From an uncultured Candidatus Saccharibacteria bacterium (GTDB taxonomy: Bacteria; Patescibacteriota; Minisyncoccia; Phycocordibacterales; PALSA-1337), in contig CAZLQL010000003.1 in assembly GCA_964561875.1 (NCBI GenBank), forward strand, positions 5,822 through 69,821: a DNA stretch of 64,000 bases, read 5' to 3'. Below, piece after piece: positions 1-63,008 of this stretch (the stretch's first letter is position 1; each line of letters begins with the position of its first letter). Below the pieces are notes generated by a model, which had not been told where the DNA came from, did not search any database, and worked only from the letters and a program-made list of their open reading frames with translations. The position numbers were made by a program, and so were the translations under genes.

Positions 1-7
1 TAGGTAG

Positions 8-1354
8 GTGAACTACAAAGAATACTTCAAAGATAAGAATATAGCCATAATAGGCTTAGGTTTGTATGGGGAAATGGTTCCTGATATAAAGTTCCTTAAA
101 AATCTAAAATCAAATATAACGATTTTTGATACAAGGAGTAAATCTAAAATCGAATCCTTCATAAAGAAATTGGGTCCAAAATATAGTGATTCAGTAAAGA
201 TAGGTAAGATAAACCCTGATGATTTGATAGATAAAGATCTGATTATATTATCCTCAGATATTCACCCAAAATCTCTTTTCTTAAAAAAGGCAAAAGAAGC
301 AAATATTCCTATAGAATATCAAGAGATTGTGTTTTTGAAATTTTCTCCAAATATAACCCTTATTGGTATTGCTGGATCTTATGGAAAAACCATGATTTCA
401 AAATTGATTTATTCTATATTTAAAAATGATCCAAAGAGCATATCTCCACAAAATTTCTATGCTATAGATCATGAGTCAAACAGTGGGTATATTTCAAATC
501 TAAAAAAGATTAAAGCAGGAGATATTGTTATATCTGAAATACCTGAATACATGATAAATGAGTATAAAAATGCAAACATAAATCCACATATTGCAGTTAT
601 AACATCTCTAACATCATTGGGTAACGGTGGTGACAATGAAGTCTTTAGTTTACTTGAAAGACAAACATACAATAACTTTATTATTGCCCCAGATAGTGTG
701 ATTGATGTTCTTAGACATAGATTTGGTTTTACTGCTAGAGCAAAAATATTTAGAACTAGAAAAGGTCTCATACCTGCCAATTGGAAAGTTAATATACAGT
801 ATTCACAATACAAAGAGAGTGCTTCGCTAGCCTTACAAGTAAGTGAAATATTTAAGATTGATAGAGATATAGCTCAAGGTGTTATAGAGGGTTTTAAGGG
901 TATAAAAGGTCATATGGAGCTAGTTAGATCCATAAGAGGGGTGGATTATTATAATGATGCCGGTTCGACTAGTCCTGAGGCTACTAGGTCTGCAATTATA
1001 AACTTATCAAAAGACAATACTAATCCAGAAGATAAAAATATTATATTGATAATCGGTGGGGCTTACACTGGTTATGAGTATCAGTCACTTATAGAGAGTA
1101 TAGGTCAAAATGTAAGATTTGTAATATGCTTACCAGGTAGCGGAACTGTTGGTTTTAGGAATCAATTACTCTCGTTAAAAAATGTTGATTTTAAACAGGT
1201 GTTAGATTTAAGGGAAGCACTTACTTGTGCAAAAGAAAATTCTAAAAAGGGTGATAAAGTAATATTTAGTCCCGCTTGTATTGCACTTGGTGTATTTGAA
1301 AATAGATTAGATAGAATTGATAAATTTGCAAAACTTGTTAAGGGTTTGAAATAA
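8..1354 (+). CDS. murD: UDP-N-acetylmuramoylalanine--D-glutamate ligase (MurD-like Mur ligase)
   Basis: GTG start. N-terminal IAIIGLGLYG Rossmann-like segment followed by Mur-ligase ATP-binding loop GIAGSYGKT. 448 aa, typical for MurD. Confidence 0.7.
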   Translation: MNYKEYFKDKNIAIIGLGLYGEMVPDIKFLKNLKSNITIFDTRSKSKIESFIKKLGPKYSDSVKIGKINPDDLIDKDLIILSSDIHPKSLFLKKAKEANIPIEYQEIVFLKFSPNITLIGIAGSYGKTMISKLIYSIFKNDPKSISPQNFYAIDHESNSGYISNLKKIKAGDIVISEIPEYMINEYKNANINPHIAVITSLTSLGNGGDNEVFSLLERQTYNNFIIAPDSVIDVLRHRFGFTARAKIFRTRKGLIPANWKVNIQYSQYKESASLALQVSEIFKIDRDIAQGVIEGFKGIKGHMELVRSIRGVDYYNDAGSTSPEATRSAIINLSKDNTNPEDKNIILIIGGAYTGYEYQSLIESIGQNVRFVICLPGSGTVGFRNQLLSLKNVDFKQVLDLREALTCAKENSKKGDKVIFSPACIALGVFENRLDRIDKFAKLVKGLK

Positions 1355-2242
1355 CTATATACCACAGATAATACACACATTTGTACCAGATAGTTTTCTT
1401 GTATAAGAATCTTTTATAAGTCCGACAATAGATAAAACACCATTCGGAGATATATCCATACCAGTATTGTTCTTAACAATATCCATGGCGTTTAAAATTT
1501 CTTCATTTGTCGCTATAAAACATTTACTACCAGAATCTTTTATAAGTTTTAATAGTGCCTCTTTTCTAAAAGCGGTTTTATCGACTATTGCATCGGCAAC
1601 AGATATCTCATTTTTTGGAATGTCTTCTGTTATGTTGTCGACCATATAGTGACATGATGATGTTTGTATAATATTTACTTCTATATCTTTTTTATTTTTA
1701 ATAAAATATTCAAGTAGTGCTTGTGCTGTTGTTCCAGATGATGAACCTATATAAACTCTTTTTACACCAGGAATATCTATTATCTCTTTTGCTAAACTCT
1801 CATAACCCAATAGGGCATTGTCATCGGTAGATTGTCTTAAACCTTTTATACTCTCATCTTTTGTTCTTTCAAACAAAGACTGTAAAGGTTTTTCAACTTG
1901 ATTTAATCTTATATTTTCATCTATCAAATCATTTATCTTTTTTAATTTTATTTTATTTACTTTATTACCAACTAAAATTTCTAGCTTTATTTTATCTTCT
2001 CTTTTTTCATTTATCCCTTTTATATATAGCCCCGCAGCCAAACCAGCGTTTCCAGATGATGATATAACAAACTCCTTTATACCTTGTTCCAAGTATATAT
2101 CTATCATTTTAGGTATAGATCTACCTTTGTGTGAACCGTAGACATGCTTATCCTCTCTTTTTAGCACTACATTTTTAACCTCTAAAATTTCATTTAGAGC
2201 CGGGTATTCTTCGTTTGGAGTTGTAACTTTATCTATATGCAT
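1355..2242 (-). CDS. PLP-dependent enzyme, fold type II (cysteine synthase / threonine synthase family)
   Basis: KREDKHVYGSHKGRS corresponds to the PLP-lysine motif (xNPTGSxKDR). ISSSGNAGLAAG matches the glycine-rich phosphate-binding loop SSGNTG of CysK/CBS-type enzymes. 295 aa. Confidence 0.6.
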   Translation of the reverse strand: MHIDKVTTPNEEYPALNEILEVKNVVLKREDKHVYGSHKGRSIPKMIDIYLEQGIKEFVISSSGNAGLAAGLYIKGINEKREDKIKLEILVGNKVNKIKLKKINDLIDENIRLNQVEKPLQSLFERTKDESIKGLRQSTDDNALLGYESLAKEIIDIPGVKRVYIGSSSGTTAQALLEYFIKNKKDIEVNIIQTSSCHYMVDNITEDIPKNEISVADAIVDKTAFRKEALLKLIKDSGSKCFIATNEEILNAMDIVKNNTGMDISPNGVLSIVGLIKDSYTRKLSGTNVCIICGI

Positions 2243-2291
2243 ATTGATATACTACACTCTTTTGTGTACTATTAGAAGTATACAGAAATAT

Positions 2292-2456
2292 ATGAAATCA
2301 ATTTGTCCAGAATGTAAAAACAACATAGATTTATCAAGATACACAAATATCAAAGAGGGTATGGTTATTGAATGTAATCACTGCGGTATTACTCTACTTA
2401 TAAAAAATATAAAAGACAACGTTATCGGTACAGATATAGTTGATGAAGGTAAATAA
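2292..2456 (+). CDS. Small zinc-ribbon protein (CPEC...CNHCG), LysW-like layout, 54 aa
   Basis: The track ORF starts at 2244; the internal in-frame ATG at 2292 gives MKSICPECKNN...VIECNHCGITLLIK. Two CxxC pairs with the same spacing pattern as amino-group carrier LysW, but the C-terminus is DIVDEGK rather than EDWGE. Confidence 0.35.
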   Translation: MKSICPECKNNIDLSRYTNIKEGMVIECNHCGITLLIKNIKDNVIGTDIVDEGK

Positions 2457-2460
2457 CTAT

Positions 2461-3855
2461 TTATTTACTTAGTTTTTGAACTGTTTCTTCTATCATTCCT
2501 CTGAATCCATGTGACCCAAGAAAGGCAATTACATCGCCTTTTTTTGTGTTGTCTATAAGGAAGTTTACTAATTCATCGTCATTATCAATATATTTTGTAT
2601 TCTTATGAGTCTTTGAAATGGTCTCAGACAATTCGTTTCCTTCCATTGGTTTTTCGGCACCATCTTCACTTATTTTAAGTTTTGAAAGTCTGGGTATTAT
2701 CACAATATCTGCACTATCAAATGCATTGTCATAAAGTGCGCTTGTATTTCTTTCTCTACCACCAATGTTTGGCTCAAATATGGTTATTATTTTGCCTTCA
2801 TATATAGATCTTAAACTGTTCAAAACAGATATTGCTTTTTCTCCAGAATGGGCAATATCATCGAAAACCTTTATATCTCCATCAAGTCTTTTTTCAAGTC
2901 TTCTCTTCATTCCTTTAAATTTTGCAATAGATTTTATTATTTTCTCAGGATTTATACCTATACTATTTGCCATAGCAAAAGCACCTGCTATATTTTCTGC
3001 TTGGAAACTACCAAGAAGATTTGATTGGATTTTGTATGTTTCGCCATTATTTTCAATATCAAAGACTAGACCTTCTTTTGTTTGTTTTATGTTTTTGTAT
3101 ATATAATCAGCATTTTCTTTACCATAAAATATTGCATTTTTAATTACTTTCTTTATACCCTCATTGTCTTTATTGGCTACAATTATTCCATCTTTGGGTA
3201 TGCTGTCTATTAACTTTCTAAATACTTCAAAATAGCTTTCTTCGGTAGGGTATAGATCTGCATGATCCCAAGATATTGCAGTTAGTAATAAGTGATTTGG
3301 TTTATAATAGTAAAATTTTGGTTTATTATCCCAAATAGCAGTTTTGTATTCATCACCTTCAACCACACTTATATTTGAATCAGATATCATTCCTGATTTA
3401 TGAGATAAAGAAACTCCCCCTGTAAAATAACTTGGTTTCAAATCGTTATCTATTAAAATAAAAGATAGAAGAGAAGAAATTGTAGTTTTACCCCATGTTC
3501 CCGTTACTACAATCGATTTATCCTTAACCACATATCTACCTATTGCTTCTGCAAAAGATAGTACTTCTATACCTTTTTCTTTTGCATATATTATTTCTGG
3601 ATTATTTAGACTAGTACCGCTTCCACCTGCGATTATTACTTCTGGTTCGCCTATATTTTCTGGGTGCCATCCAGCATAAAATTCTACTCCATTTTTTTCT
3701 AGATCAGTAGATACAGGAGGGAAGAAACCCTTATCTGAGCCTGTGATTTTATATCCATGGTCTTTTAGAGCTATAGCCAAAGCGCTAGTAGCTACACCAC
3801 AAATACCAACAAAATGAATATGAGTTTTTTTATGATTCATTCTGATATTATACAT
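2461..3855 (-). CDS. murC: Mur ligase, MurC/Mpl family (UDP-N-acetylmuramate--L-alanine ligase or murein tripeptide ligase)
   Basis: N-terminus HIHFVGICGVATSALAIAL...GYKITGSD...FFPPVSTDLEKNGVEF (the YPPMS-like segment is closest to Mpl). ATP-binding loop VTGTWGKTT. 464 aa. Confidence 0.8.
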   Translation of the reverse strand: MYNIRMNHKKTHIHFVGICGVATSALAIALKDHGYKITGSDKGFFPPVSTDLEKNGVEFYAGWHPENIGEPEVIIAGGSGTSLNNPEIIYAKEKGIEVLSFAEAIGRYVVKDKSIVVTGTWGKTTISSLLSFILIDNDLKPSYFTGGVSLSHKSGMISDSNISVVEGDEYKTAIWDNKPKFYYYKPNHLLLTAISWDHADLYPTEESYFEVFRKLIDSIPKDGIIVANKDNEGIKKVIKNAIFYGKENADYIYKNIKQTKEGLVFDIENNGETYKIQSNLLGSFQAENIAGAFAMANSIGINPEKIIKSIAKFKGMKRRLEKRLDGDIKVFDDIAHSGEKAISVLNSLRSIYEGKIITIFEPNIGGRERNTSALYDNAFDSADIVIIPRLSKLKISEDGAEKPMEGNELSETISKTHKNTKYIDNDDELVNFLIDNTKKGDVIAFLGSHGFRGMIEETVQKLSK

Positions 3856-4516
3856 TAACTAATAATTCTTTTACTTCATCGATATCGGTCTTCCATTCTT
3901 TTCCATCAAACCACTCAATACCTTCAAATTGCAATTTGTATACATCACCAGGTCTTTGTAGGGAGCCAAGATAAACATATTTATAATTGTTTTCTTTCGC
4001 AAAGTTTATAGTTTTTGTCATCATTATAAGACCCATATCTTTTATAGATTTTTCTATATCATAAAATGGATAACAATAATGAATCATTTCATTATTTTTA
4101 AATGATATAGCATATCCAGTATTGGAAATATTATCTGAAAAGTTAAATAGTGTATTAAAATTATCTTTTGTTGTGATCAATTCCTTTATCTTATTTGCAG
4201 AAAAAGCACCGTTTGCTTTTTTATCATAAAAATCTTTTGCCATTTTTCCTATATTCCAATCATAACCTAAGTATGGAATCTCAATAATTTTTAATGATAT
4301 ATTTTCTCCTTTTCTTAATATCCTTCGATTTTCACTTGTTAGATTAAATTTAGATATATTTATTCTTACAGATCTAGTCTGGTGCATCACACCTTTATCG
4401 ATACGAGTAAATACGTATCCTTCATTATAAAGTTTATTTATATCATGTTTATCACCAATCTTTTTTTCGTCCCAGTGTAAATATTCCATATTAGTGAAGT
4501 GCAAGCCAGAAACCAA
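3848..4516 (-). CDS. Aminoacyl-tRNA--protein transferase homologue (Bpt / ATE family, GNAT-like fold)
   Basis: N-terminal EGYVFTRID...RSVRINISKFNLTSENRRILRK resembles the ATE_N block GFRRSG...VRIPVxxFxxSxSQRR. C-terminal GYAISF..HYCYPFYD and YKYVYLGSL..YKLQFEGIEW resemble the ATE_C blocks LSAVYFFYDP and YLYLGYWI..YK..F.P.E. Overlaps murC by 8 nt and mraY by 26 nt. Confidence 0.45.
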   Translation of the reverse strand: MVSGLHFTNMEYLHWDEKKIGDKHDINKLYNEGYVFTRIDKGVMHQTRSVRINISKFNLTSENRRILRKGENISLKIIEIPYLGYDWNIGKMAKDFYDKKANGAFSANKIKELITTKDNFNTLFNFSDNISNTGYAISFKNNEMIHYCYPFYDIEKSIKDMGLIMMTKTINFAKENNYKYVYLGSLQRPGDVYKLQFEGIEWFDGKEWKTDIDEVKELLVNV

Positions 4517-5618
4517 AAACTACAAATATAAAGTGCAATATCCAAAATCTCATAATAGTTTTTTCTTCGCTCCATCCTATCATTTCAAAATGGTGGTGTA
4601 GTGGAGCCATACGGAATATTCTTCTGCCCAGTATGTATTTTCCAGCAATTTGAATAAGAACTGATATGGCTTCTATGTAGAACATAAAACCTAAGAAAAA
4701 TAGGGTACTTATTTCACCAATTGCAAGAGTGTTTACAGCAAGCAAAGCCCCCAATCCCAAAGATCCTACATCTCCCATCATAAATCTGGCTGGTTTAATA
4801 TTGAAATATGTATATGAGACCAAAGCTCCAACTGCAGTGGCATTCAATACTGCAATTTCTCCAAAACCATTTATCCAAGACAATAGTGTTAGTACTGAAA
4901 AAGTAGGTATCATCATACCTCCTGCCAATCCATCCATTCCATCAGCTATATTCACCGCATTTGCTGTAAACATAACTATGAATATTATTATCGGTATAAT
5001 GAACCAACCTGCAAAAACTTCATAACCAAAAGGGAAGTATATATAGTGCCAAGCTGGACCTAGTTTGTCATATACCCACCAAGCAGTTATAGATCCAGCT
5101 ATAAACTGAAGTACTAGCTTTTCATGAACAGCAATACCTTTTACTGTTCTTGATCCTATCCACACAGAAGTTCTTTTAAATATTGACCAAGGTAAAGTTA
5201 TTGCATACCATATTCTCATCTTCATTTCTTTGTGTATCTTGATCAGGTGTATTATATGAGACAATTTTCTTGACCTTCTTTCTGTACCAAATATATTCAT
5301 AAGATCATCTATACCTCCAAGTATTGCTGAAAGTATCATTACTCCTATAGGTACCCAAGTAAAACTTCTAGACCAGTTAAAAAGAATTGTTACTATAGCT
5401 ACAACAACTATAACAAGTAGTCCTCCCATTATTGGAGTGTTATCTTTTCCTTTTCTAGATTCGATTTTACTTAGTTCAATCTTAGGATTTTTTATTATAT
5501 GAAATCTCTTTAGTAAGTGTATGAGTAATGGCGCACATAAAAAAGCTATAGCACAGCTAAATATTGAAAAACCAAGAATATAGCCAAGATCGGCCGTTCC
5601 TTCTAGTATGCTTATCAT
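4491..5618 (-). CDS. mraY: Phospho-N-acetylmuramoyl-pentapeptide transferase
   Basis: Polytopic membrane protein with the MraY signatures NTPIMGGL, MGDVGSLGLGA and RMAPLHHHFE. Confidence 0.92.
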   Translation of the reverse strand: MISILEGTADLGYILGFSIFSCAIAFLCAPLLIHLLKRFHIIKNPKIELSKIESRKGKDNTPIMGGLLVIVVVAIVTILFNWSRSFTWVPIGVMILSAILGGIDDLMNIFGTERRSRKLSHIIHLIKIHKEMKMRIWYAITLPWSIFKRTSVWIGSRTVKGIAVHEKLVLQFIAGSITAWWVYDKLGPAWHYIYFPFGYEVFAGWFIIPIIIFIVMFTANAVNIADGMDGLAGGMMIPTFSVLTLLSWINGFGEIAVLNATAVGALVSYTYFNIKPARFMMGDVGSLGLGALLAVNTLAIGEISTLFFLGFMFYIEAISVLIQIAGKYILGRRIFRMAPLHHHFEMIGWSEEKTIMRFWILHFIFVVFGFWLALH

Positions 5619-5670
5619 AAGCCAATATTAGCTTAAAATAGGCCTTTTTTCAATGTTAATTAATTTTGTT

Positions 5671-6450
5671 TTAGTCTAAGAAATTTAGTCTACGTAGTTC
5701 AGTTACAGAGTTTTTTGCACTACTAAATGTATAGTTATCATCACTTAATTTTTCACTCTCAATCCATCTTTGATCAATGATATTTTTTTCACTGTCGATT
5801 ATCTCTATTATTCCATCTTTGACTCCATGATTGTATTCACCGTGACTTGGCCAAGCTATAGAATGAGTATAGTGAATTTTTATAGGTTTAAAATTCTGAT
5901 ATTCAACCTGATATATTATGAGTATATGATTTCTTTCTCCTAAGCCACTATTTTTTTGCATAGTTATCATATCACCAACTTTTATATCGTTTATTTTTAT
6001 TGTTTTAGAATTTTTATTATTTACAAATGTTTCGACATTTGTATTTTCTACAGGTCTTATCATTGCTCTTAGTTTACCCAATATACCTTTTGAATCAGTA
6101 AATTTTAAATTTTTATCTAAACCTCCTTTATTTAGACTTTGGCTAAGACTATTAAATACATAGTATGCATATCCTGAACAATCAATACCTATGTCATTGT
6201 TTACTAAAAACTTTTTTAAACTATCATTTGTAAATTCATTTGTATCTATTTTTTGAGATATACAAAGTTGTTCTACTTCATCAAATATTTCTTTTGGACT
6301 ACCTTTACCTATTTCAACGCGTAATCTTGCTCTGCCACCTTTATGTTTATTGTTGTAATAGGGAATAGAGCAAATAGCTTTACCAAATTTGAAATTTGTA
6401 TATTGATTTATTACTTCTATTGATTTTTCATTTATAAACTTTGTATTCAT
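5671..6450 (-). CDS. Hypothetical protein with DCSG motif (possible NlpC/P60- or transglutaminase-like cysteine peptidase/amidase)
   Basis: GIDCSGYAYYVF contains the Cys-containing DCSG motif typical of NlpC/P60-type papain-fold enzymes. His-containing segments (HILIIY, HYTHS) lie downstream. No other family recognised. Confidence 0.3.
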   Translation of the reverse strand: MNTKFINEKSIEVINQYTNFKFGKAICSIPYYNNKHKGGRARLRVEIGKGSPKEIFDEVEQLCISQKIDTNEFTNDSLKKFLVNNDIGIDCSGYAYYVFNSLSQSLNKGGLDKNLKFTDSKGILGKLRAMIRPVENTNVETFVNNKNSKTIKINDIKVGDMITMQKNSGLGERNHILIIYQVEYQNFKPIKIHYTHSIAWPSHGEYNHGVKDGIIEIIDSEKNIIDQRWIESEKLSDDNYTFSSAKNSVTELRRLNFLD

Positions 6451-6453
6451 TTT

Positions 6454-7581
6454 TTAAATCAATGATTCCAATATAGCTTTTCCTCTTTTATTAAATTTAT
6501 TATGTGATTCCATTATTCCCATATTTGACTGGATTCTTATTAAATCACTATTTAATTTCGTATTGTTGTATTTGATTATATTATATCCGAGGTCCTTTAG
6601 AGTATTTGTATCTACAGTAATATCATTCTTTGTAACTCTTTTTACTATTTGAGCCCCGTCATTTATTTCTATGGTGTCTTCATCTATTTCTTCATCTAAA
6701 AGTGACTTTATATGTGCTTCAAATACTGTAATACCTTTAAGACCCTCATTTCTATTTTGGATTTGAAGCTTTGACTCAAATGTTGTAGACGCAGGTTGTC
6801 TAGCATTTATTTCTATTAAGTATATTTTATCTAGTTCTTCATCGTAAATAACATCTATTCCAAACAATCCTTTCCATCCAGAGTTACGCATTTTATCTGC
6901 TACTTTTTTTGATATATTTTGTATTTCTTCTATTTTATTTTCTGTAAGGATTGATGGTGGTACACTCCAATCATTTCCTATTGTACTCATCTGATTGTCG
7001 GTAAAGGGTAGTACACCTGTTATTTGATAGCTTATGTTTCCAAATAAGTTTTTATTTTTCCCCACAATAATGTTTTGTGTAAACATGGGTCCTTTAATGT
7101 ATTTTGTAACTCTAGCTTCTCTATTTGGGAATTTGGCTTTTATTTCGGTAAGATCTTTTTCTTGATTGATTAAAAATGTTCCTTCTCCAGTATGGCTATG
7201 TGCCCACTGAAGTACAAACACTTCTTTTTCCCAGACTATATCTTTTGCCAACTGGATCTTGTGGGGCGGTAAGAATTCTTTTCCTATATCTGATAACCAT
7301 TCTGTTTGAGTAATTTTATTTTCAATCTTCTCTGCAAGTTCTGCACTTGGGTTTAGTAAATTAATATCATTTTCTTTTGCAATATTTTCAATCTGAATAT
7401 TATTTTTAAATACCAAGACTGAAAGTTTTTCTTTTTTAATATTGTCTAGTGTAGATTTTTCTGATATCAAGGAAAGTGTATCTTTTTCACCATGTTCAGA
7501 AAGTATTGAATAAAATTCATTTTCAGGCATAGAATCCGCCCTCTCTCTATCTCTTGTTATGTATAGTATTTTCTTTTTCAT
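6454..7581 (-). CDS. ATP-grasp domain protein (Ddl-/RimK-like ligase of unknown substrate)
   Basis: C-terminal GLFGIDVIYDEELDKIYLIEINARQPAST matches the ATP-grasp Mg/ATP-binding core (E-x-N). Upstream WAHSHTGEGTFLI is a P-loop-like segment. The N-terminal 100 aa do not match canonical Ddl. Confidence 0.6.
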   Translation of the reverse strand: MKKKILYITRDRERADSMPENEFYSILSEHGEKDTLSLISEKSTLDNIKKEKLSVLVFKNNIQIENIAKENDINLLNPSAELAEKIENKITQTEWLSDIGKEFLPPHKIQLAKDIVWEKEVFVLQWAHSHTGEGTFLINQEKDLTEIKAKFPNREARVTKYIKGPMFTQNIIVGKNKNLFGNISYQITGVLPFTDNQMSTIGNDWSVPPSILTENKIEEIQNISKKVADKMRNSGWKGLFGIDVIYDEELDKIYLIEINARQPASTTFESKLQIQNRNEGLKGITVFEAHIKSLLDEEIDEDTIEINDGAQIVKRVTKNDITVDTNTLKDLGYNIIKYNNTKLNSDLIRIQSNMGIMESHNKFNKRGKAILESLI

Positions 7582-7616
7582 TTTATTTAAAACACTATAC
7601 CATATTATGAAATACC

Positions 7617-7853
7617 GTGTATAATAGACTCACATTAGTTTTTTATTTAAATTTTATGTCAAAAAGACAATTACTTTCTCTTATAGGTGTTTGGAATATA
7701 TTCTTTCTTTTTTTAGGTATACCTACTGCTTGGGATAAAATACTTTCAATTTTAGTCGGTATTATCATTATTGTGATTGCTTACAGGTTGCCCTATGAAG
7801 AGAAGAATAAAATAGCCACTGACAAAGAAGAGACATTCATAGAAAATAAATAA
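7617..7853 (+). CDS. Small hypothetical membrane protein
   Basis: 78-aa ORF with two hydrophobic helices immediately upstream of the next + strand gene. Confidence 0.3.
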   Translation: MYNRLTLVFYLNFMSKRQLLSLIGVWNIFFLFLGIPTAWDKILSILVGIIIIVIAYRLPYEEKNKIATDKEETFIENK

Positions 7854-7858
7854 TATAA

Positions 7859-9034
7859 ATGATTCCGAAAGTTCTTTACAAAAACAGTTTAATTGCAAGT
7901 AGTACAGTAGCTGTTATTGTAATAATTTTATTTTTTATAAATAAAATACCTTTTACATATCAGGCATACACTAGCGCTGTAGATGATGGAGTGTCTTCCA
8001 CTACAATATTACTCAATAGACGTATTCCAAGACATGTAAAGACACCAGAACCACTAAAAGCTATTTATATGACTAGTTGGGTTGCTGGTAGTGAAAGGTT
8101 GAGAAGTAAACTTATTGATTTTATTGATACTTCTGAATTGAATGCAGTAGTTATAGATATAAAGGACTATACCGGTCGTATTTCTTTTGAAGTAAATGAT
8201 GAGAAGTTAAAAGAGGTTGGATCAGTTGAAAAAAGAATTACTGATATAGATGAATTAATCGAGAGATTGCATGATAAAGGTATATATGTAATTGGTAGAA
8301 TATCTTGTTTTCAAGATTCTTATTTTGTAAAAAGATATCCTCAATATGCAGTAAAGACAAAAAGCGGGGAAGTTTGGAAAGATTATAAAGGTATAAGTTG
8401 GCTTGATGCTGGAGCTGTACCCGTATGGGATTATTTGGTAAATATTGGAAATGAAGCATATAAAATAGGCTTCGATGAATTAAATTTTGATTATATTAGA
8501 TTTCCTTCAGATGGAAATATGAATGATATTTCATATTCATATGCAAATGGAAGATCAAAACCAGATGTATTAAAAGATTTTTTTGCACATTTAGATAAAG
8601 AATTTAGAAATAAAGATATACCAATATCAGCAGATTTGTTTGGTATGACAACTTCAAATAATGATGACTTGGGTATAGGGCAGATACTTGGAAATGCCCT
8701 TATACATTTTGATTATGTTGCGCCTATGATTTATCCATCTCACTACCCACCAAATTTTAACGGTTGGCCAAATCCTGCAAAAGAACCTTATGCAGTTATA
8801 AAGTTTGCTCTTGAAAAAGGTAAAGAAAAAGCAGATCTTGCTAGTACTAGTCCAAATAAGCTGAGACCTTGGTTACAAGATTTCGGTATAAATGGGGTGA
8901 CTTATACTCCTGATATGGTACGTACACAGATACAAGCTACTTATGATGTTGGGCTTACTAGTTGGATGATGTGGAATGCTTCAAATGTATATTCTACTTC
9001 TGCTTATAAAACTGAATTAAATAATAAAAAATAA
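7859..9034 (+). CDS. Membrane-anchored putative glycoside hydrolase-like TIM-barrel protein (DUF4015/YngK-like)
   Basis: N-terminal TM helix. KAIYMTSW...NAVVIDIKDYTG...GIYVIGRISCFQD...FDYIRFP pattern is typical of the GH-like DUF4015 family. Confidence 0.45.
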   Translation: MIPKVLYKNSLIASSTVAVIVIILFFINKIPFTYQAYTSAVDDGVSSTTILLNRRIPRHVKTPEPLKAIYMTSWVAGSERLRSKLIDFIDTSELNAVVIDIKDYTGRISFEVNDEKLKEVGSVEKRITDIDELIERLHDKGIYVIGRISCFQDSYFVKRYPQYAVKTKSGEVWKDYKGISWLDAGAVPVWDYLVNIGNEAYKIGFDELNFDYIRFPSDGNMNDISYSYANGRSKPDVLKDFFAHLDKEFRNKDIPISADLFGMTTSNNDDLGIGQILGNALIHFDYVAPMIYPSHYPPNFNGWPNPAKEPYAVIKFALEKGKEKADLASTSPNKLRPWLQDFGINGVTYTPDMVRTQIQATYDVGLTSWMMWNASNVYSTSAYKTELNNKK

Positions 9035-9102
9035 ATATTTAAATTATCTTTTTATTATATTAAAGAGAAACTATAAAAATCTCCTAGCTTTAAATTTAAA
9101 TA

Positions 9103-9140
9103 AATAATTTTTTGACATATTTTTATAAAGCGTGCTATAT
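9103..9140 (+). promoter_or_regulatory. Sigma70-like promoter (TTGACA-N17/18-TATATT) for the downstream small RNA
   Basis: TTGACA at 9103-9108 and a TATATT-like -10 about 18 nt downstream. The GC-rich transcript begins about 8 nt after it. Confidence 0.4.
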
Positions 9141-9147
9141 TTATGTT

Positions 9148-9299
9148 GCCCAGGTCCTGAAAGATGTTGAGAGACAGCATGCGTGCTGCCTCTCTACTGG
9201 CATCACACCTCGCGAGAGGCACGCGTGATGCTAGCACCTCCAAGCATCAAATAGGGGCCTGGGCACCACACAAAACCTTCTTTCGGGAGGGTTTTTTTA
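9148..9299 (+). ncRNA. Small structured RNA, candidate SRP RNA (ffs), with intrinsic terminator
   Basis: GC-rich segment in an AT-rich genome with no credible ORF. Terminal helix GCCCAGG/CCTGGGC. CCAGGUCCUGAAAG resembles the SRP helix-8 motif CCAGGUCCGGAAGG. Internal CCUC-GCGA-GAGG GNRA hairpin. Followed by a CCTTC-loop-GGAGG-T7 terminator at about 9273-9299. Confidence 0.4.
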
Positions 9300-9394
9300 T
9301 TTATGTAAAGTTATACACATATATTTACCATAATATTTACCTTATATTTACACAGCATTGCATTTTATTGTCTAAAGAGTTATTATATTTATCC

Positions 9395-9850
9395 GGAGGT
9401 ATACAGTCCGATCATGGAGGTTGGGTAAACTGTATACAAGTACTAATTCGGTAAAGCACGGAGGTGCTATGTCGTCTATCAGAGTCCCGAGAGACTTCGG
9501 TAAGTCTCATCGTAGTGCAACACAACACCCAGCGCGAGCCCAGCAATCTTCGGAGGAAGTTGCTGGGAAGCAAGCCCAAGCTCAGGTTCCAAAGGTGGAT
9601 TCGCCTGAGACGGTTGATCTGTGTCATGTTGCTCCCAAAAGGCAGCCAGTCAAGCATGGCGTTTATAAGTTTCCAAGGTGCCAGCCAGTAAATGGTCCCT
9701 CATTGAGGGAACAGATTCAGAGGCATAATGAGATCCTGTACGGGGGAGCTGAGTTTGGGATCCCAAGCTAACTGAAACTGAAAGTCTTTTAGACACGAAA
9801 CCCGCTAGGTATGTTCATATGATGTGGACTGCCTAAGCGGGTTTTTGATT
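9395..9850 (+). ncRNA. Structured ncRNA of unresolved class (~450 nt, GC-rich)
   Basis: ~52% GC island. Many perfect hairpins: GTATACAGT/ACTGTATAC 9 bp, GAGACTT-CGGT-AAGTCTC, CCCAGCAA..TTGCTGGG 8 bp, TTTGGGATCCCAAG, CCCTCATTGAGGG. Only short overlapping ORFs on both strands. Ends in a hairpin-T5 terminator at 9799-9850. An extended -10 promoter for the next gene follows. No tmRNA T-arm/CCA or tag frame found. Confidence 0.45.
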
Positions 9851-9882
9851 TTATAAAATATAGACAAAAAAATTATTGTATA

Positions 9883-9891
9883 TGGTATAAT
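9883..9891 (+). promoter_or_regulatory. Extended -10 element TGGTATAAT for the ATPase gene
   Basis: TGnTATAAT lies 21 nt upstream of the ATG at 9912, after the ncRNA terminator. Confidence 0.4.
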
Positions 9892-9911
9892 ATACACAGT
9901 AAAAAATCTCT

Positions 9912-11861
9912 ATGAATGAAGAAAGGATTACATATTTTGGACAAACAGATGCAAGGAATAAAAGGGTGTCTTTTGGTATAAAAGCAAAAGATAGAACTCG
10001 TCATGTTTATGTCATAGGAAAAACAGGTATGGGTAAGTCTACTTTACTCGAGAATATGGCTGTGCAGGATATAAAAAACGGTGAAGGTATGGCTTTTATA
10101 GATCCACACGGAAAAACTGCCGATCTATTACTTGAGTATGTGCCAAAAGAAAGAATAAAGGATGTAATATATTTTGCTCCTTTCGATTTGGATTACCCTA
10201 TATCATTTAATGTGCTTGAAAGTGTAGATGCAGACAAGAGACATCTAGTTGTTTCTGGGCTAATGAGTACATTTAAAAAGATTTGGAAGGATGCTTGGTC
10301 AGCCAGAATGGAATATATCCTAACAAATACTCTTCTTGCTCTCCTTGAATATCCAGAAGCAACACTACTCGGAGTAAATAGAATGCTTTCAGACAAAGAA
10401 TATAGAAAAAAAGTAATCTCTTGTGTAACAGATCCTGCAGTGAAGACCTTTTGGGTTGAAGAATTTGCAAACTATACAGAGCGTATGGCTGCAGAAGCTG
10501 TGCCTGCAATACAAAATAAGATCGGTCAGTTTACTGCAAATGCACTTATAAGAAACATGATAGGTCAATCCAAATCTTCTTTTGATATTAGAAAGGCTAT
10601 GGATGAGAAGAAGATTATGATAATTAACCTTTCAAAGGGAAGAATAGGAGAAACAAATGCAAATCTTCTAGGAGGTATGCTCATTACAAAGATATACCTC
10701 GCAGCACTTTCTCGTGCTGATGTTCCAGATAAAGTTTTAAAAACATTACCAAATTTCTATCTTTTTGTGGACGAGTTTCAATCTTTTGCAAATGAATCTT
10801 TTGCCGATATTTTGTCTGAGGCTAGAAAATATAAATTAAATCTAACAATTGCTCACCAATATATAGAACAAATGGAAGAAGAGGTAAGAGCAGCGGTATT
10901 CGGAAACGTTGGAACGATGATAGTCTTTAGGGTTGGTTCATATGATGCTGAGGTTTTGGAAAAAGAATTCGCACCGCAGTTTACTGCTGAGGATATTGTA
11001 AATCTTGGTTTCGCTCAAATATATTTGAAACTAATGATAGATGGAATAAGTTCATTACCTTTTTCTGCAACTACATTACCACCTATAGCTCAACCAGATG
11101 TTTCAAATGCAAAAGAAGTACTTGATACATCAAGATCGCAATTTGCTAGGACCAGAGCAGATGTTGAAAAAGCAATTGCAGATTGGCACGCACCTTTACC
11201 AGTTCCTCCGAAAGTAAAACCACAAACAAGACCTCAAGATAATCAAAGAGATTTAAATAGAGATGCAAATAGAGAGAGTTCAAAGACAAATGATAATCAC
11301 GGTCATACAAATTTGCATACAAATTCAAATACAAGTCCAGGTGTAAATCATAGTGCTTCTGAAAGTAAAAATAATGCAAGTAAGCCTCATTTTGATAATC
11401 ATTCACACTCACAAAATCAAAATCATGTTCATGTTGAAAATCATGTAAATAAAGAACATTCTAATCATCAAACAATAAATAATAGTAATATTCAGAATAC
11501 CCATACAAATCATCATGGTGAACATATGGAAAAAGATAAAAAAGATGATTTTATATCTCTAAATGATTTAAAGAAAAATATTCCAAATACGTCAAATATT
11601 ACTTCAAATAATAATCATAATAATACAAAGAATATAAAAACTCCTGATCCAAAAAATATCAGTGAATTAAAAAATGCTTTGGCTTCAGTATTGAAAAATA
11701 ATGATAAATTTAAGGAAAGTGCTAGACAAGTAAATACTGAACAAACAAAATCTCCAGTTCAAGATAGATCAAAAGAAAAAATAGCTCAAAATGATAATGT
11801 TAAACCAAATAATGGTGAAGTAAGTGAGGATGTACTAAAAGAGGTTCTTAAGGTAGAGTAA
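9912..11861 (+). CDS. FtsK/HerA-superfamily P-loop ATPase, VirD4/TraG/TrwB (type IV coupling protein)-like, with low-complexity C-terminal tail
   Basis: HVYVIGKTGMGKSTLLENM...FIDPHGK matches the T4CP pattern G.TG.GKS...DPKG. Walker B is LFVDEFQSF. The last ~190 aa are His/Asn/Ser-rich and disordered-looking (HVHVENHVNKEHSNHQ...). Confidence 0.55.
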   Translation: MNEERITYFGQTDARNKRVSFGIKAKDRTRHVYVIGKTGMGKSTLLENMAVQDIKNGEGMAFIDPHGKTADLLLEYVPKERIKDVIYFAPFDLDYPISFNVLESVDADKRHLVVSGLMSTFKKIWKDAWSARMEYILTNTLLALLEYPEATLLGVNRMLSDKEYRKKVISCVTDPAVKTFWVEEFANYTERMAAEAVPAIQNKIGQFTANALIRNMIGQSKSSFDIRKAMDEKKIMIINLSKGRIGETNANLLGGMLITKIYLAALSRADVPDKVLKTLPNFYLFVDEFQSFANESFADILSEARKYKLNLTIAHQYIEQMEEEVRAAVFGNVGTMIVFRVGSYDAEVLEKEFAPQFTAEDIVNLGFAQIYLKLMIDGISSLPFSATTLPPIAQPDVSNAKEVLDTSRSQFARTRADVEKAIADWHAPLPVPPKVKPQTRPQDNQRDLNRDANRESSKTNDNHGHTNLHTNSNTSPGVNHSASESKNNASKPHFDNHSHSQNQNHVHVENHVNKEHSNHQTINNSNIQNTHTNHHGEHMEKDKKDDFISLNDLKKNIPNTSNITSNNNHNNTKNIKTPDPKNISELKNALASVLKNNDKFKESARQVNTEQTKSPVQDRSKEKIAQNDNVKPNNGEVSEDVLKEVLKVE

Positions 11862-41248: not shown

Positions 41249-42268
41249 GTGAATATAATTTCTGGCCCAAATTTAAATAATTTGACAACTTTTCGTATCG
41301 GGGGTAAAGCCCGATTTTTTTGTAGTATAAATAGTATAGAAGATATAGAAAAAGCATTAGAATTCGCTTCAAATAATAATTTAAAGATATTTGTTTTAGG
41401 TGGAGGTTCAAATATACTTTTTTCGGACGAAGGTTTTGATGGTTTGGTAGTAAAGATGGAAATGATGGGTGTAAATGTTGAAGATATAGATGATGAAAAG
41501 AGTTTGGTTGAAGCTTTTGCAGGTGAGAATTGGGATGATTTTGTAAAATTTACTGTAGATAAAGGATTATATGGTCTTGAAAATTTATCATATATACCAG
41601 GTACAGTAGGAGCAAGTCCGGTTCAAAACATCGGAGCGTATGGAAGTGAAGTGAAAGATACTATTTATTCTGTAAAGGTATTTGATATAAAGGATAATAA
41701 AATAGTTTTTTTTAACAACAAGGATTGTGATTTTAGTTATAGAAATAGTATTTTTAAAAAGAATAAAGGTAGGTATATCATAGTTTCAGTTAAATTTATT
41801 TTAAATAAAAAAGGTAAATTAAATCTTGAGTATAAAGATATTAAAGAATATTTATTAAAAAATAATATAAAGAATCCAACACTTTTAGATATTAGAGAAG
41901 CTGTAATAAATATAAGGAAGAATAAATTACCAGATATTGGTCTTGTCGGTACAGCAGGTTCATTTTTTAAAAATCCAATTATAAAAAAGGAAAAGGTAGT
42001 TGAATTAAAAGTTAAATGGCCAGAATTGCCTGTGTATGATCATAATGATGAGGAAGTTAAGGTCTCTTTAGCATGGATAATCGATAAAGTATGTGGTTTA
42101 AAGGGTTTGAGTAAGGGGAATGTCGGTATATATAAGAATCAGGCATTAGTACTGGTAAATAATGGAAATGCTACAGCACAAGAAGTAAAAGATTTTGCAA
42201 ATATTATAATAAAATCTGTAAAGGATATGACAGGTATAGATATAGAAACTGAGGTGGAATGGGTTTAG
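41249..42268 (+). CDS. murB: UDP-N-acetylenolpyruvoylglucosamine reductase
   Basis: N-terminal NLTTFRIGGKARFF (FAD-binding, MurB-typical), 339 aa, GTG start. Confidence 0.85.
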   Translation: MNIISGPNLNNLTTFRIGGKARFFCSINSIEDIEKALEFASNNNLKIFVLGGGSNILFSDEGFDGLVVKMEMMGVNVEDIDDEKSLVEAFAGENWDDFVKFTVDKGLYGLENLSYIPGTVGASPVQNIGAYGSEVKDTIYSVKVFDIKDNKIVFFNNKDCDFSYRNSIFKKNKGRYIIVSVKFILNKKGKLNLEYKDIKEYLLKNNIKNPTLLDIREAVINIRKNKLPDIGLVGTAGSFFKNPIIKKEKVVELKVKWPELPVYDHNDEEVKVSLAWIIDKVCGLKGLSKGNVGIYKNQALVLVNNGNATAQEVKDFANIIIKSVKDMTGIDIETEVEWV

Positions 42269-51571: not shown

Positions 51572-51576
51572 TATTG

Positions 51577-51914
51577 TGTACCAGACAGTTGCTGTGATAT
51601 GAAAATATCATAGAGGAAAGTCCGAACATCGGTCTATTTATTTAGACAGCAAGGTAGCGGGTAACGCCCGTCAGTCGAAGGACTAGAGGTGCGAACAGAG
51701 ACGTCTTTATTGGAAACGATAAAGAAACCCTTAGGGGTTAGCTTGTATAGAAATATACGAGGTGCAACGGCAAAATCCTTACCCCGATGCAAGGCCGTGC
51801 TTGTAAATAGTAAAATATTTATAAGAGTGCCGCTTGAGGTTAACTGCAAAGTTAATCCCAGATAAATGACTGTCGTTCGTCTTTGGCGAATACAGAATTC
51901 GGCTTACAGGTACA
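51577..51914 (+). ncRNA. rnpB: RNase P RNA (bacterial)
   Basis: AGGAAAGUCCGAAC (P4 5' strand) and ACAGAAUUCGGCUUA (P4 3' strand/3' end consensus). P1 TGTACC/GGTACA pairing. P3 hairpin TGTGATAT-gaaa-ATATCATA. GGUGCAACGGCAAA (P10-12 region). Confidence 0.8.
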
Positions 51915-51916
51915 AT

Positions 51917-54463: not shown

Positions 54464-56143
54464 ATGGTAAAAAAGATATTTAGTTTCTTAAGTAAAGAAG
54501 TTTCTGATTTGCATGAAGCTGCATATCTTTTGGCTTTTTTTACTTTTGCTTCTCAAATCTTAGCTATCGTTAGAGATAAATTACTAGCATATCACTTCGG
54601 TGCTGGCATTGAACTAGATATATATTATGCAGCATTTAGAATACCTGATCTTATATTTGTTTCGATCGGTTCTATAGTGTCAGTATCAGTTCTATTACCA
54701 TTTATAACTGAAGCCTATGCAGAAGGTAAGGAAAAAGGAAGAAAGTTTACTGACAGTATCTTTTCAGTATTCTTTTTTTCTCTAATTATAACTAGCATAA
54801 TAGTTATTATATTCACAAATCCCTTATTAAAAATTCTTTTACCAGGATTAAAGGATAGTGTTAGATTTGATGATTTGGTAGCAATGACCAGAATATTACT
54901 TTTATCACCAATTTTTCTTGGTATATCGAACTTTATATCAAACATTACACAAATGCATAAACGATTCTTAGTTTATGCACTTAGTCCTATTATGTACAAT
55001 ATGGGAATAATATTTGGAATATTATTTCTTTTCCCAAAGTTTGGTTTGTACGGTTTATCATTCGGTGTAATCATAGGAGCATTTGTGCATATGTTTATAC
55101 AACTACCATTTATTCTCGGAAGAGGTATTTCACCTAGATTAACAATAAATATAGATTGGCAACAAGTTAAAAAGGTGTTGCTGGTATCACTACCTAGAAC
55201 TTTAGCTTTATCATCTAGTCAGCTTACTTCATTCTTTTTGATATCACTTGCTTCACTTATGAGTGGAGGTGCAATATCAATATTTAATCTAGCCTTAAAC
55301 CTTCAGTCTGTACCGCTAGCAATTGTAGGGGTTAGTTATTCTTCTGCAATATTTCCTGCATTATCAAAATACTTTGTTGATGGAGAGAAAGATAAATTCA
55401 TATCAAAAGTTATAGAATCAGGAAGACATATTATATTCTGGTCTGTACCAATCACAATACTTTTTATTGTTTTAAGAGCACAGATAGTCAGAACAATATT
55501 TGGTGCAGGAAACTTTGACTGGTCAGACACTAGGTTGACTGCAGCTGCACTTGCTCTATTTGTTATATCAGTTTCAGCACAAAGCTTAATACTATTATTT
55601 ATGAGGGCTTGTTATGCTAGAGGCAAGACTAGAATGCCTCTACTTGTAAATGTATTTTCTTCTTTGGTAATTGTTATTCTCGCATATTTCTTGAGTCATA
55701 TATTCAAATCAGTCCCAGTTTTTGCATATTTTATAGAAGATATGTTCAAAGTGAGTGGCGAGATCGGTACTATCATATTAGTATTACCACTTTCATATAC
55801 TATAGGAAATATCATAAATCTTGTAATTTATTGGTATATTTATGAAAAAGATTATCCAGGTCTATCGAGATCTATACTCCCATCTTTCTATCAGATTTTT
55901 GCAGGATCTGTGATTATGGGGTATGTTACATTTATATCCCTAAGGTTCTTTAATGTCTATTTTCCATTAACAAAGGTCTGGGGAGTGTTTTTACAGGGCT
56001 TTTGTGCTGGTATAGTCGGTATATTGTCACTTATAATCATTTTGCGTATATTGAACAATAAGGAGTTAAAGGAGGTTTGGGAAACCCTACATCATAAGAT
56101 ATGGAAAGCAAAAGTTGTTATTCCAGAACAAGATAGTCTGTAG
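54464..56143 (+). CDS. murJ: Lipid II flippase MurJ (MviN)
   Basis: LLAYHFGAGIELDIYYAAFRIPDLIF matches the MurJ N-terminal signature. 14-TM, 559 aa. Confidence 0.8.
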   Translation: MVKKIFSFLSKEVSDLHEAAYLLAFFTFASQILAIVRDKLLAYHFGAGIELDIYYAAFRIPDLIFVSIGSIVSVSVLLPFITEAYAEGKEKGRKFTDSIFSVFFFSLIITSIIVIIFTNPLLKILLPGLKDSVRFDDLVAMTRILLLSPIFLGISNFISNITQMHKRFLVYALSPIMYNMGIIFGILFLFPKFGLYGLSFGVIIGAFVHMFIQLPFILGRGISPRLTINIDWQQVKKVLLVSLPRTLALSSSQLTSFFLISLASLMSGGAISIFNLALNLQSVPLAIVGVSYSSAIFPALSKYFVDGEKDKFISKVIESGRHIIFWSVPITILFIVLRAQIVRTIFGAGNFDWSDTRLTAAALALFVISVSAQSLILLFMRACYARGKTRMPLLVNVFSSLVIVILAYFLSHIFKSVPVFAYFIEDMFKVSGEIGTIILVLPLSYTIGNIINLVIYWYIYEKDYPGLSRSILPSFYQIFAGSVIMGYVTFISLRFFNVYFPLTKVWGVFLQGFCAGIVGILSLIIILRILNNKELKEVWETLHHKIWKAKVVIPEQDSL

Positions 56144-61800: not shown

Positions 61801-62069
61801 TTACCAAATTATAACCCAAATTACCCAAATATCGTTGGGGAAAAGACTTCATGTTATTCATTTGTATAACATATACATTAAGACTTGGTTATATAACTAA
61901 ATAAAGATAAATAAAGATATCAGCTTGACAAATTCCTATTTTGTGATAGGGTACAAAGTAAATGTGTTCTTTGACAGGAATCTTCAATTGTGTTGTTTTT
62001 CCCGTGTGGGATAGACGTCAGGATATGTCCTGCACATTGTCGATTTCAGAAGAACTATAGGAGGATAGA

Positions 62070-62936: not shown

Positions 62937-62956
62937 ACACCTTCAACCCCCACAAC

Positions 62957-63008
62957 AGCACCCAGTCTTCAAGGCTTCACGCTAAGAAGATTGGGTGCTT
63001 TTCGTTTT
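62957..63008 (+). terminator. Rho-independent terminator (long loop)
   Basis: AGCACCCA...TGGGTGCT followed by TTTCGTTTT. Confidence 0.4.

Follow-up and report, generated by a model that had tools for sequence, protein, structure and literature searches.

A conserved set of accessory genes, coding for an ATE/Bpt-fold protein and a candidate LysW-like carrier, in a peptidoglycan-precursor cluster of Patescibacteria

The gene cluster and its conservation

The 64-kb stretch of contig CAZLQL010000003.1 analysed here (the window) has a G+C content of about 30%, and its closest relatives are metagenome-assembled genomes (MAGs) of Patescibacteria; it contains a cluster in which genes of peptidoglycan-precursor synthesis, coding for MraY, a MurC/Mpl-type ligase and MurD, are interleaved with genes for five other proteins. 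As reported in a preliminary description of this DNA, five open reading frames (ORFs) follow one another on the minus strand at 2461-7581: an ATP-grasp ligase of 375 amino acids (6454-7581; PF02655, E 3.9e-8), a divergent NlpC/P60-type Cys peptidase or amidase of 259 amino acids (5671-6450; motif IGIDCSGYAYY), a somewhat divergent MraY (4491-5618; PF00953, E 2.7e-24), a protein of 213 amino acids resembling the aminoacyl-tRNA transferases of the ATE/Bpt fold (3848-4489; called Bpt-like below), and a MurC/Mpl-type UDP-MurNAc ligase with three Mur ligase domains (2461-3840). The spacers are tiny, as also reported, and measure 3, 52, 1 and about 7 nucleotides (nt) after correction of the start codons. 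The overlaps of the Bpt-like gene with both the mraY and murC genes, which had been described as well, are probably not real, and derive from taking the longest ORFs (3848-4516 and 2461-3855) as genes. Indeed, every Bpt-like homologue begins with a conserved MEYLHW, which places the start at ATG 4489, 1 nt past the mraY stop codon, and the N-termini of the MurC homologues lie about five residues ahead of the HIHxVGICG motif, corresponding to ATG 3840 in the window.

The segment 2461-7581 omits three conserved members of the cluster. The apparent 218-nt "gap" between the genes of MurC and of a fold-type-II pyridoxal-phosphate (PLP) enzyme of the PALP family (295 amino acids; 1355-2242, minus strand; PF00291, E 1.2e-24) holds a plus-strand gene of 54 codons (2292-2456), which had gone unnoticed in the preliminary description; its product, MKSICPECKNNIDLSRYTNIKEGMVIECNHCGITLLIKNIKDNVIGTDIVDEGK, was read from the sequence and followed by jackhmmer, and it is a LysW-like zinc-ribbon protein and a candidate carrier. 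The third member is a divergent MurD with MurD-like_N and Mur_ligase_C domains (8-1354, plus strand), whose gene is convergent with that of the PLP enzyme. A consensus scan revealed no intrinsic-terminator-like site at the intergenic junctions of 2461-7581, the sole minus-strand match in this segment falling within the coding sequence of MraY, and co-transcription from the ATP-grasp gene to murC is plausible. No riboswitch or T-box that could betray an amino-acid specificity was found in 1-9200 at E <= 1, nor is there a dedicated tRNA gene near the cluster; the only one observed, a tRNA-Ile(GAU), is located 5-9 kb downstream of the Bpt-like gene in about 25 Paceibacteria loci (e.g., L006 18090-18163 and L010 17811-17884) and, not being adjacent to the cluster, probably reflects plain synteny.

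Searches of a collection of 5.8 billion proteins at E <= 1e-3 returned 1632 homologues of the Bpt-like protein, the best 120 with 60-87% identity, and 1486 of the ATP-grasp protein; when each GTDB species was represented by one genome, 312 species were found to encode the Bpt-like protein. Synteny was analysed by phmmer in the best 80 of these 312 species loci, which belong to two classes (Paceibacteria and Magasanik-type), each count being limited to the loci with enough flanking sequence. The taxa named for the 80 loci are Paceibacteria, Taylorbacteria, Nomurabacteria, Minisyncoccia and Magasanikbacteria; the Saccharibacteria or Gammaproteobacteria labels of many third-party MAGs are taken to be generic or wrong.

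Conservation of the neighbourhood, a check proposed in the preliminary description, turned out to be strong. MraY is encoded immediately upstream of the Bpt-like protein in 77/77 loci and MurC downstream in 68/68, with the PLP enzyme downstream of both (64/64); on the upstream side, the ATP-grasp gene is present in 59 of 63 loci and the NlpC/P60-like gene in 64 of 70, in addition to two fusions. MurD follows the PLP enzyme in 42 of 56 loci; the Magasanik-type loci lack it at this position and have MurB upstream of the ATP-grasp gene instead. The 54-amino-acid protein was recovered by jackhmmer in 73 loci, of which 71 are among the 80 species loci (approximately all those whose sequence reaches the MurC-PALP interval, L047 and L072 included), and its gene is always on the opposite strand, flanked by those of MurC and the PLP enzyme. 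Furthermore, a scan of metagenomes of the Joint Genome Institute (JGI) with a DNA pattern for EIVDEGK plus a stop codon gave at least 120 stretches, and at least 87 metagenome contigs encode the protein, every visible context being MurC / LysW-like / PLP enzyme. The gene order is therefore far beyond chance, as it is the same in essentially all 80 species genomes and in at least 87 metagenome contigs, and it is close to certain that these genes represent a real, conserved and wall-linked accessory set of Patescibacteria.

The ATP-grasp and NlpC/P60 sequences form a single uninterrupted ORF in at least five contigs (L058, L075 and the metagenome contigs L119, L168 and L180), which is strong evidence that the two activities work together. 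The NlpC/P60-like gene is inverted in 13 of the 80 species (L005, L011, L012, L014-L017, L021, L022, L026, L027, L031 and L035), where it keeps its position between the ATP-grasp gene and mraY and must therefore have its own promoter. In L028 and L071 mobile-element genes replace the ATP-grasp and NlpC genes upstream of mraY, namely an IS30 transposase (L028, 7110-8060) and a serine recombinase with a primase-like gene (L071, 2706-7349).

In a full-text literature search, in which not all journals are covered, no account was found of wall clusters of Patescibacteria with a LysW-like gene, an ATE/Bpt-like gene or a pairing of ATP-grasp and NlpC, in agreement with the earlier remark that no description of the combination was known. 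Taken one by one, the components all resemble enzymes or carriers of known kinds; judging from the sequences, the new elements would be the use of an ATE-type transferase instead of a Fem enzyme and the presence of a LysW-like carrier system inside a mur cluster.

Properties of the encoded proteins

The Bpt-like protein has a GNAT-like aminoacyl-tRNA transferase fold. Structure comparison gave the highest score with human ATE1 (16.1, with 206 of 213 residues aligned), followed by the aminoacyl-phosphatidylglycerol synthase domain of MprF/LpiA (14.8), yeast Ate1 (14.2), L-PGS (14.1), Weissella FemX (12.2), the aminoacyl-tRNA-dependent peptide synthase Sbb17 (11.1) and S. aureus FemX (10.9). At the sequence level, its only matches are models of arginyl-tRNA-protein transferases: ATE_C (PF04377) scores 23.2 bits (E 1e-4), below the Pfam gathering threshold of 25, and the best NCBIfam model (arginyltransferase) 39.3 bits, where the cut-off is 252 and those of the arginyl-tRNA-protein transferase models range between 170 and 358. 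ATE_C is matched weakly by 22/22 family members, and with 30-40 bits by members of a sister clade. ATE_N (PF04376) matches neither the window protein nor the 22 family members, the N-terminal half of the family alignment (A1) contains no invariant Cys, and a PDB sequence search with the protein had no match; only 395 relatives came out of 1.84 billion cluster representatives in a profile search, which thus did not reach the canonical Bpt proteins. For these reasons, and as far as sequence can tell, the protein is not a canonical Bpt/ATE (PF04376 and PF04377; NCBIfam PRK01305); it is part of a compact family of its own, which at 50% identity comprises about 400 clusters. Among the family assignments of the preliminary description, those of the ATP-grasp (PF02655) and, marginally, of the NlpC/P60 protein (PF00877) held, while that of the Bpt-like protein did not reach the family thresholds.

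The Fem/MurM enzymes (FemX, FemA/B, MurM/N) build the interpeptide branches of peptidoglycan from aminoacyl-tRNA; unlike these proteins, which are two-lobed and 330-420 amino acids long, the cluster protein is single and compact (about 210 amino acids), has no sequence membership in PF02388, and is structurally nearer to ATE1 and MprF. It also differs from Bpt, ATE1 and LFTR, since it stays far below their family thresholds, has no ATE_N or cysteine cluster, and occurs in the context of cell-wall synthesis and not of proteolysis.

The sister clade (100-190 bits, 240-275 amino acids) has another gene arrangement and keeps the link with the wall: the order is MurE - Bpt-like - MurC/Mpl-like - PgeF-like - MurB - MurA ... 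MraZ - RsmH in L086, and MurE - Bpt-like (with a 4-nt overlap) - MurC/Mpl-like in L088. The Bpt-MurC pair, found in 68/68 loci and in the sister clade, is thus the most invariant adjacency. The side-chain amine of the diamino acid that MurE installs is the acceptor for Fem-type enzymes, and for this reason the juxtaposition of MurE and the Bpt-like protein is suggestive; the MurE-Bpt-MurC order would fit the addition of a tRNA-borne residue to the stem peptide. A relative with a weaker score (86 bits) occurs in an unrelated gene context and marks the edge of the wall-linked family. An apparent Bpt fusion in L061 was discarded as an artefact, masked Ns joining the gene to that of a methyltransferase. 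Separately, a protein of 809 amino acids (P0496) carries a distant Bpt-like domain fused to PPDK_N and PEP-utilizer domains, an ATP-dependent phosphotransfer module. The PgeF-like gene of L086 (3355-4176; TIGR00726, 62 bits, below cut-off) comes right after the MurC-like gene, and no such gene is present in the cluster of the window.

The ATP-grasp protein has the expected fold with the acidic residues that bind Mg and ATP, and belongs to the PurK/PurT/L-amino-acid-ligase (Lal) structural class; by structure it is grouped with ligases of amino acids and peptides, among them PylC, an enzyme that acylates the epsilon-amine of free lysine. The family carries an E-x-N-x-R motif (EINARQPAS), which characterises the branch of PurK, biotin carboxylase and Lal. 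A Ddl function by homology was rejected on the Ddl hidden Markov model (HMM) score, the omega-loop and the catalytic Arg255: when the family was compared with E. coli DdlB by hhalign, only the generic core aligned, with 36% probability, and the position of Arg255 is an invariant Gly in the ATP-grasp family. No NCBIfam match to a D-aspartate ligase family was obtained at E <= 0.01. On this basis it is concluded that the protein is probably an amino-acid or peptide ligase outside the Ddl family, which might nevertheless supply a dipeptide.

The NlpC/P60-like protein matches PF00877 marginally (24.1 bits, cut-off 23), as do 15 of 22 family members, and in alignments of 22-72 homologues C91 and H175 are invariant and D90, S92 and H196 nearly so, consistent with the Cys-His(-polar) catalytic set of this family. 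The PDB alignment, to LytE, covers the GxDCSGF motif only, and the conserved N- and C-terminal regions have no known counterpart. The N-terminus has neither a hydrophobic stretch nor a signal peptide; the enzyme is therefore probably cytoplasmic, a location that would be unusual for this family of wall hydrolases.

The 54-amino-acid protein has the features of a four-Cys zinc ribbon with a flexible C-terminal tail: in the alignment (A4), C5, C8, C28 and C31 are invariant (CPEC ... CxxC) and the sequence ends with (T)EIVDEGK. The top two matches of a PDB profile search were the LysW carriers of T. kodakarensis (53 amino acids, E 0.035) and T. thermophilus (54 amino acids, E 0.078), both aligned across the zinc ribbon, and the L003 copy has a weak precomputed match to PF21344 (Zn_ribbon_LysW); marginal E-values are expected for a protein of 54 residues. 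Size, Cys spacing, the acidic flexible tail and co-location with an ATP-grasp gene agree in making it a candidate LysW-like carrier. The terminal Lys does not vary among 146 unique sequences, and a single change is seen for each of D, E and G at positions -4 to -2; the search pattern biases the metagenome sequences of this set but not the genomic ones.

The PLP enzyme is distantly related to threonine synthase and dehydratase; indeed, threonine synthase is the best NCBIfam model (41 bits, far under its cut-off) and is matched in the PDB (E 5e-5). The SHKGR lysine and the SSGNA/SSGTTA motifs are conserved.

MraY scores 167 bits on TIGR00445 (cut-off 192), with readable DD, DGMDGLA (DGxDGLA) and PLHHHFE motifs, and MurD 137 bits on TIGR01087 (cut-off 212). 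The MurC-like protein fails both equivalog cut-offs, with 259 bits on murC (TIGR01082, 335) and 211.5 on mpl (TIGR01081, 388.7), and the sister-clade proteins score nearly equally on the two models (253 and 241 bits for L086, 1947-3359; 172 and 171 bits for L088, 2176-3171); the MurC of the cluster may represent a third subfamily of the MurC/Mpl clade. A separate MraY paralogue, or the synthesis of a pseudomurein-like polymer, was considered and rejected, as the bacterial models far outscore the pseudomurein ones. In addition, the order in L047 and L072 is RlmN - GpsA - penicillin-binding protein (PBP) - HAD - MurF - MraY - Bpt - MurC - LysW-like - PLP enzyme; MraY directly following PBP-HAD-MurF must therefore be the one of the main dcw pathway and not that of a paralogous system.

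The window also encodes MurB (41249-42268) and MurJ (54464-56143); MurE, MurF, Ddl, MurG and FtsW were not found among its scanned ORFs, neither the window nor any of the fetched loci showed a Ddl, MurI or Alr, and DdlB of E. coli matched none of the fetched ORFs. The MurF of L047 and L072 scores 266 bits on TIGR01143 and has thousands of relatives, the best 120 at 62-99% identity and those with names mostly from Magasanikbacteria. In L084 and L085, MurF is found in the context sulfatase - transketolase - P-type ATPase - RlmN - PBP - MurF, without MraY, and L049 and L061, which have the full cluster from the ATP-grasp gene to the PLP enzyme, display orthologues of the same ATPase and sulfatase (639-830 bits) at their left edge. 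RlmN-PBP-MurF follows the ATPase in 4/4 loci that show its downstream side; in the Magasanik type, the ATPase-sulfatase block is about 2-3 kb upstream of the ATP-grasp gene and ends with PBP-MurF in every fully visible case, so that in genomes of the L049 and L061 type MurF is very probably encoded about 10 kb from the cluster. A core-gene table of Parcubacteria (PMC4508563, Table S1) lists murE in 15 of 17 genomes and murF in 14 of 17, together with murA, murB, murG, murJ and ftsI; Ddl does not appear in the copy used, which is probably incomplete, so that absences there mean little. A replacement of murE and murF by the non-canonical genes, which according to the preliminary description lie where canonical dcw clusters carry murE, murF and ddl, is thus unlikely, given that both genes are in the Parcubacteria core table (PMC4508563), that MurF is abundant and conserved in Magasanik-type genomes, and that a PBP-MurF block lies near the ATP-grasp gene; MurE and MurF are probably encoded elsewhere in the cluster-bearing genomes, and the non-canonical genes probably add to their steps rather than substitute for them.

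Predicted modules and alternative explanations

The cluster can be read, tentatively and with somewhat less than even confidence, as a lineage-specific core for peptidoglycan-precursor synthesis, made of MraY, the MurC/Mpl-type ligase and MurD, interleaved with two accessory modules. In the first module, the ATE/Bpt-fold protein would move an amino acid from aminoacyl-tRNA to a free amine of the stem peptide of a UDP- or lipid-linked precursor. This acceptor would most likely be in the side chain of the diamino acid that MurE places at position 3, and the step would be a branch formation like that of FemX/MurM, performed by another branch of the same fold superfamily. The second module would comprise the ATP-grasp ligase, the NlpC/P60-type peptidase, the LysW-like protein and the PLP enzyme, and it would work with a carrier protein, as the LysW/LysX/LysK and CysO/CysM/Mec+ pathways do, supplying the Mur ligases. 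The ATP-grasp ligase would tether an amino acid to the EIVDEGK tail, most likely at the terminal Lys; the PLP enzyme would convert the tethered residue, by epimerisation or beta-replacement; and the Cys peptidase would free a D- or non-proteinogenic amino acid for the Mur ligases, for instance D-Glu for MurD.

Some constraints on this pathway come from the chemistry of the enzymes. A PLP enzyme needs the free alpha-amine of its substrate; therefore, the coherent version is the one in which the terminal Lys would be acylated on its epsilon-amine by a carboxyl of the substrate, in the way that PylC acylates free lysine. NlpC/P60 enzymes typically cut the bond between gamma-D-Glu and a diamino acid, and this preference, together with the adjacency of MurD, leads to the most specific guess, that is the conversion of a tethered L-Glu to D-Glu. 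In full, a building block of the wall would be made or edited on the carrier, with Glu bound via its gamma-carboxyl to the terminal Lys as the leading candidate; the PLP enzyme would epimerise or rebuild it and the NlpC/P60 enzyme release only the correct product, an enzyme of the ATE/Bpt type and not of the Fem type acting separately on the stem peptide. Taken as a whole, this detailed scheme is rather unlikely.

Both types of carrier system offer precedents. In LysW/LysX/LysK a carrier, an ATP-grasp loader and a hydrolase cooperate, and in CysO/CysM/Mec+ a carrier, a PALP-fold enzyme and a protease, CysM being a PALP enzyme that works on the tail of a carrier protein. As in the LysW system of Thermus and archaea, a four-Cys zinc ribbon of 53-54 amino acids with an acidic flexible tail is clustered here with an ATP-grasp ligase and a hydrolase; however, the tail is DEGK with a terminal Lys instead of EDWGE with a terminal Glu, the ligase is PurK/Lal-like and not RimK-like as LysX/ArgX, the hydrolase is a Cys peptidase whereas LysK is an M20 metallopeptidase, kinase, reductase and aminotransferase genes are absent, and the context is that of mur genes. 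The likeness to the CysO system of Mycobacterium consists in a small carrier, whose role is here predicted, a fold-type-II PLP (PALP) enzyme and a releasing protease; CysO, in contrast, has the beta-grasp fold of ThiS/MoaD and a GG-thiocarboxylate, with activation through adenylation, while the cluster has a Lys-ended zinc ribbon and an ATP-grasp partner. Two other systems share features with the cluster: the D-aspartate ligase Aslfm of Enterococcus and Lactococcus, an ATP-grasp ligase that adds the side-chain amino acid to the precursor and has an aspartate racemase gene adjacent, and glutathionylspermidine synthetase/amidase, which unites, by coupling or fusion, a synthetase of the ATP-grasp type with a papain-like (CHAP/NlpC) amidase, like the fusions described above. 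No sequence-level relationship to either was detected, and the carrier-like protein has no counterpart there.

Several observations weigh against the two-module reading. The sister clade possesses the Bpt-like gene without the second module, so that the modules are separable and the link between them is positional only; moreover, its MurE scores as of the diaminopimelic acid (DAP) type, and DAP-type walls are usually cross-linked directly, with no branches. Conversely, L047 and L072 keep the carrier-like and PLP genes with no ATP-grasp or NlpC gene within 10 kb. The similarity to LysW is statistically marginal (E 0.035-0.078 over 54 amino acids), and EIVDEGK departs from the LysW tail, EDWGE, which bears the substrate on the terminal Glu. 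Gene content, order, conservation, fusions, folds and catalytic residues are observed, and it is from these that co-transcription, every substrate and every reaction are predicted.

The location of all these genes among mur genes in every genome examined would also be accounted for if the ATP-grasp enzyme ligated a (D-)amino acid straight onto the nucleotide- or lipid-linked precursor in an Aslfm-like manner, the NlpC/P60 enzyme trimmed or edited it, the Bpt-like protein added a tRNA-borne L-amino acid, the PLP enzyme acted as a racemase and the zinc ribbon served as scaffold or regulator. In Enterococcus and Lactococcus a racemase gene adjoins that of the D-Asp ligase, ligases of amino acids and peptides are among the members of the ATP-grasp fold class, and the ATP-grasp/NlpC fusions resemble the pairing of glutathionylspermidine synthetase/amidase, in which an ATP-grasp-like synthetase is combined with a CHAP amidase that reverses its product. 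However, this explanation gives no reason for a 54-amino-acid protein with an absolutely conserved tail locked between MurC and the PLP enzyme, and it has to face the missing NCBIfam match to a D-aspartate ligase family at E <= 0.01; it is possible but on the unlikely side. The invariable presence of the LysW-like protein and the PLP enzyme makes a carrier pathway at least as likely as direct addition to, or trimming of, the precursor. Thus, of the amino-acid addition and trimming module proposed in the preliminary description, the tRNA-dependent addition is consistent with the MurE-Bpt-MurC order, while the ATP-grasp/peptidase pair may not act on the precursor at all. Relatives of the Bpt-like protein act on N-terminal Asp/Glu, and the organisms considered here are episymbionts with few biosynthetic pathways, which would fit muropeptide salvage: a YkfC-like NlpC/P60 enzyme would cut imported stem peptides, the Bpt-like protein would re-add L-Ala from tRNA to the N-terminal gamma-D-Glu peptide, and a ligase intermediate between MurC and Mpl would attach the rebuilt peptide to UDP-MurNAc. 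The failure of the MurC-like protein to reach either the murC or the mpl cut-off, with equal scores in the sister clade (253 and 241 bits), the invariant Bpt-MurC pair and the lack of a signal peptide in the peptidase are all in line with it, but the conserved block contains no peptide transporter, the presence of MurD, MurE (sister clade) and MurF (L047 and L072) beside the cluster indicates a stepwise de novo pathway, and we know of no precedent for the tRNA-dependent repair of free stem peptides; salvage is accordingly decidedly improbable.

Two further possibilities can be considered. A Van-like replacement of the D-Ala-D-Ala supply, in which the PLP enzyme would racemise Ala or Ser, the ATP-grasp ligase would make D-Ala-D-X for MurF without a canonical Ddl, and the peptidase would clear wrong dipeptides, is compatible with the occurrence in these lineages of MurF, which requires the dipeptide, and with the absence of Ddl from the window, the fetched loci and the probably incomplete copy of the core-gene table of PMC4508563; it is quite improbable. 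Alternatively, the Bpt-like protein could be an ordinary N-end-rule transferase, of the kind that passes Arg or Leu to the N-terminal Asp/Glu of proteins destined for ClpS/ClpAP degradation, or a modifier of some other protein, placed among mur genes by operon packing in a tiny genome. This is very improbable, since the Bpt/ATE equivalog score is missed widely (39 against 252 bits), ATE_N and the cysteines are lacking, and the 395 relatives among 1.84 billion representatives do not extend to canonical Bpt; in addition, MraY, MurE or MurC is adjacent in two classes and in the sister clade, and the unrelated context of the 86-bit relative implies that the wall link is specific to the Bpt-like family.

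Patescibacteria, also known as the Candidate Phyla Radiation (CPR), are ultra-small bacteria that account for a large part of bacterial diversity and whose wall chemistry is hardly characterised experimentally. The level of conservation found here, with at least 312 species genomes and about 1,500-1,600 protein clusters, predicts steps of the precursor pathway that are absent from textbook bacteria, namely an ATE/Bpt-type tRNA-dependent addition and possibly a carrier-mediated wall amino acid. If the two-module reading is true, LysW-like carriers and ATE/Bpt-fold transferases would have more roles than those known so far, and the supply of wall-specific amino acids in organisms with very scant amino-acid metabolism would be easier to explain; the carrier pathway, in particular, would be a new supply route for D- or non-standard amino acids of the wall. 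Five small soluble proteins would then be available as targets for in vitro reconstitution, the organisms being mostly unculturable.

Other features of the window

The genes next to the cluster at 7656-11861 are divergent from the ATP-grasp gene and conserved in Paceibacteria-type loci; they code for a membrane protein of 64 amino acids (7656-7850), a DUF4015 putative glycoside hydrolase (7859-9034), found in 39 of 56 loci and absent in the Magasanik type, and a TrwB/TraG-like coupling ATPase (9912-11861). They are followed by a cell-surface glycan cluster of about 20 genes (11866-40603), which includes many glycosyltransferases (GT1, GT2, GT4 and GT9) and at least eight S-adenosylmethionine (SAM) methyltransferases, besides an asparagine synthase, a fatty-acid desaturase, a YfhO-like membrane protein, a Wzx-type flippase and a Wzy/O-antigen-ligase protein with tetratricopeptide repeats (TPR).

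At the other end of the window, the region 62000-64000 has a G+C content of 0.44, compared with about 0.30 elsewhere, and contains ORFs overlapping on both strands. No Rfam family was detected there at the gathering threshold or at E <= 0.01, and the ORF of 288 amino acids at 62070-62936 had no PDB sequence match; the region may have a foreign origin or code for a non-coding RNA not yet described. A class A RNase P RNA (51573-51922, 136.7 bits) overlaps the predicted start of a TPR ORF of 863 amino acids (51866-54457), the true start of which is therefore probably further downstream.

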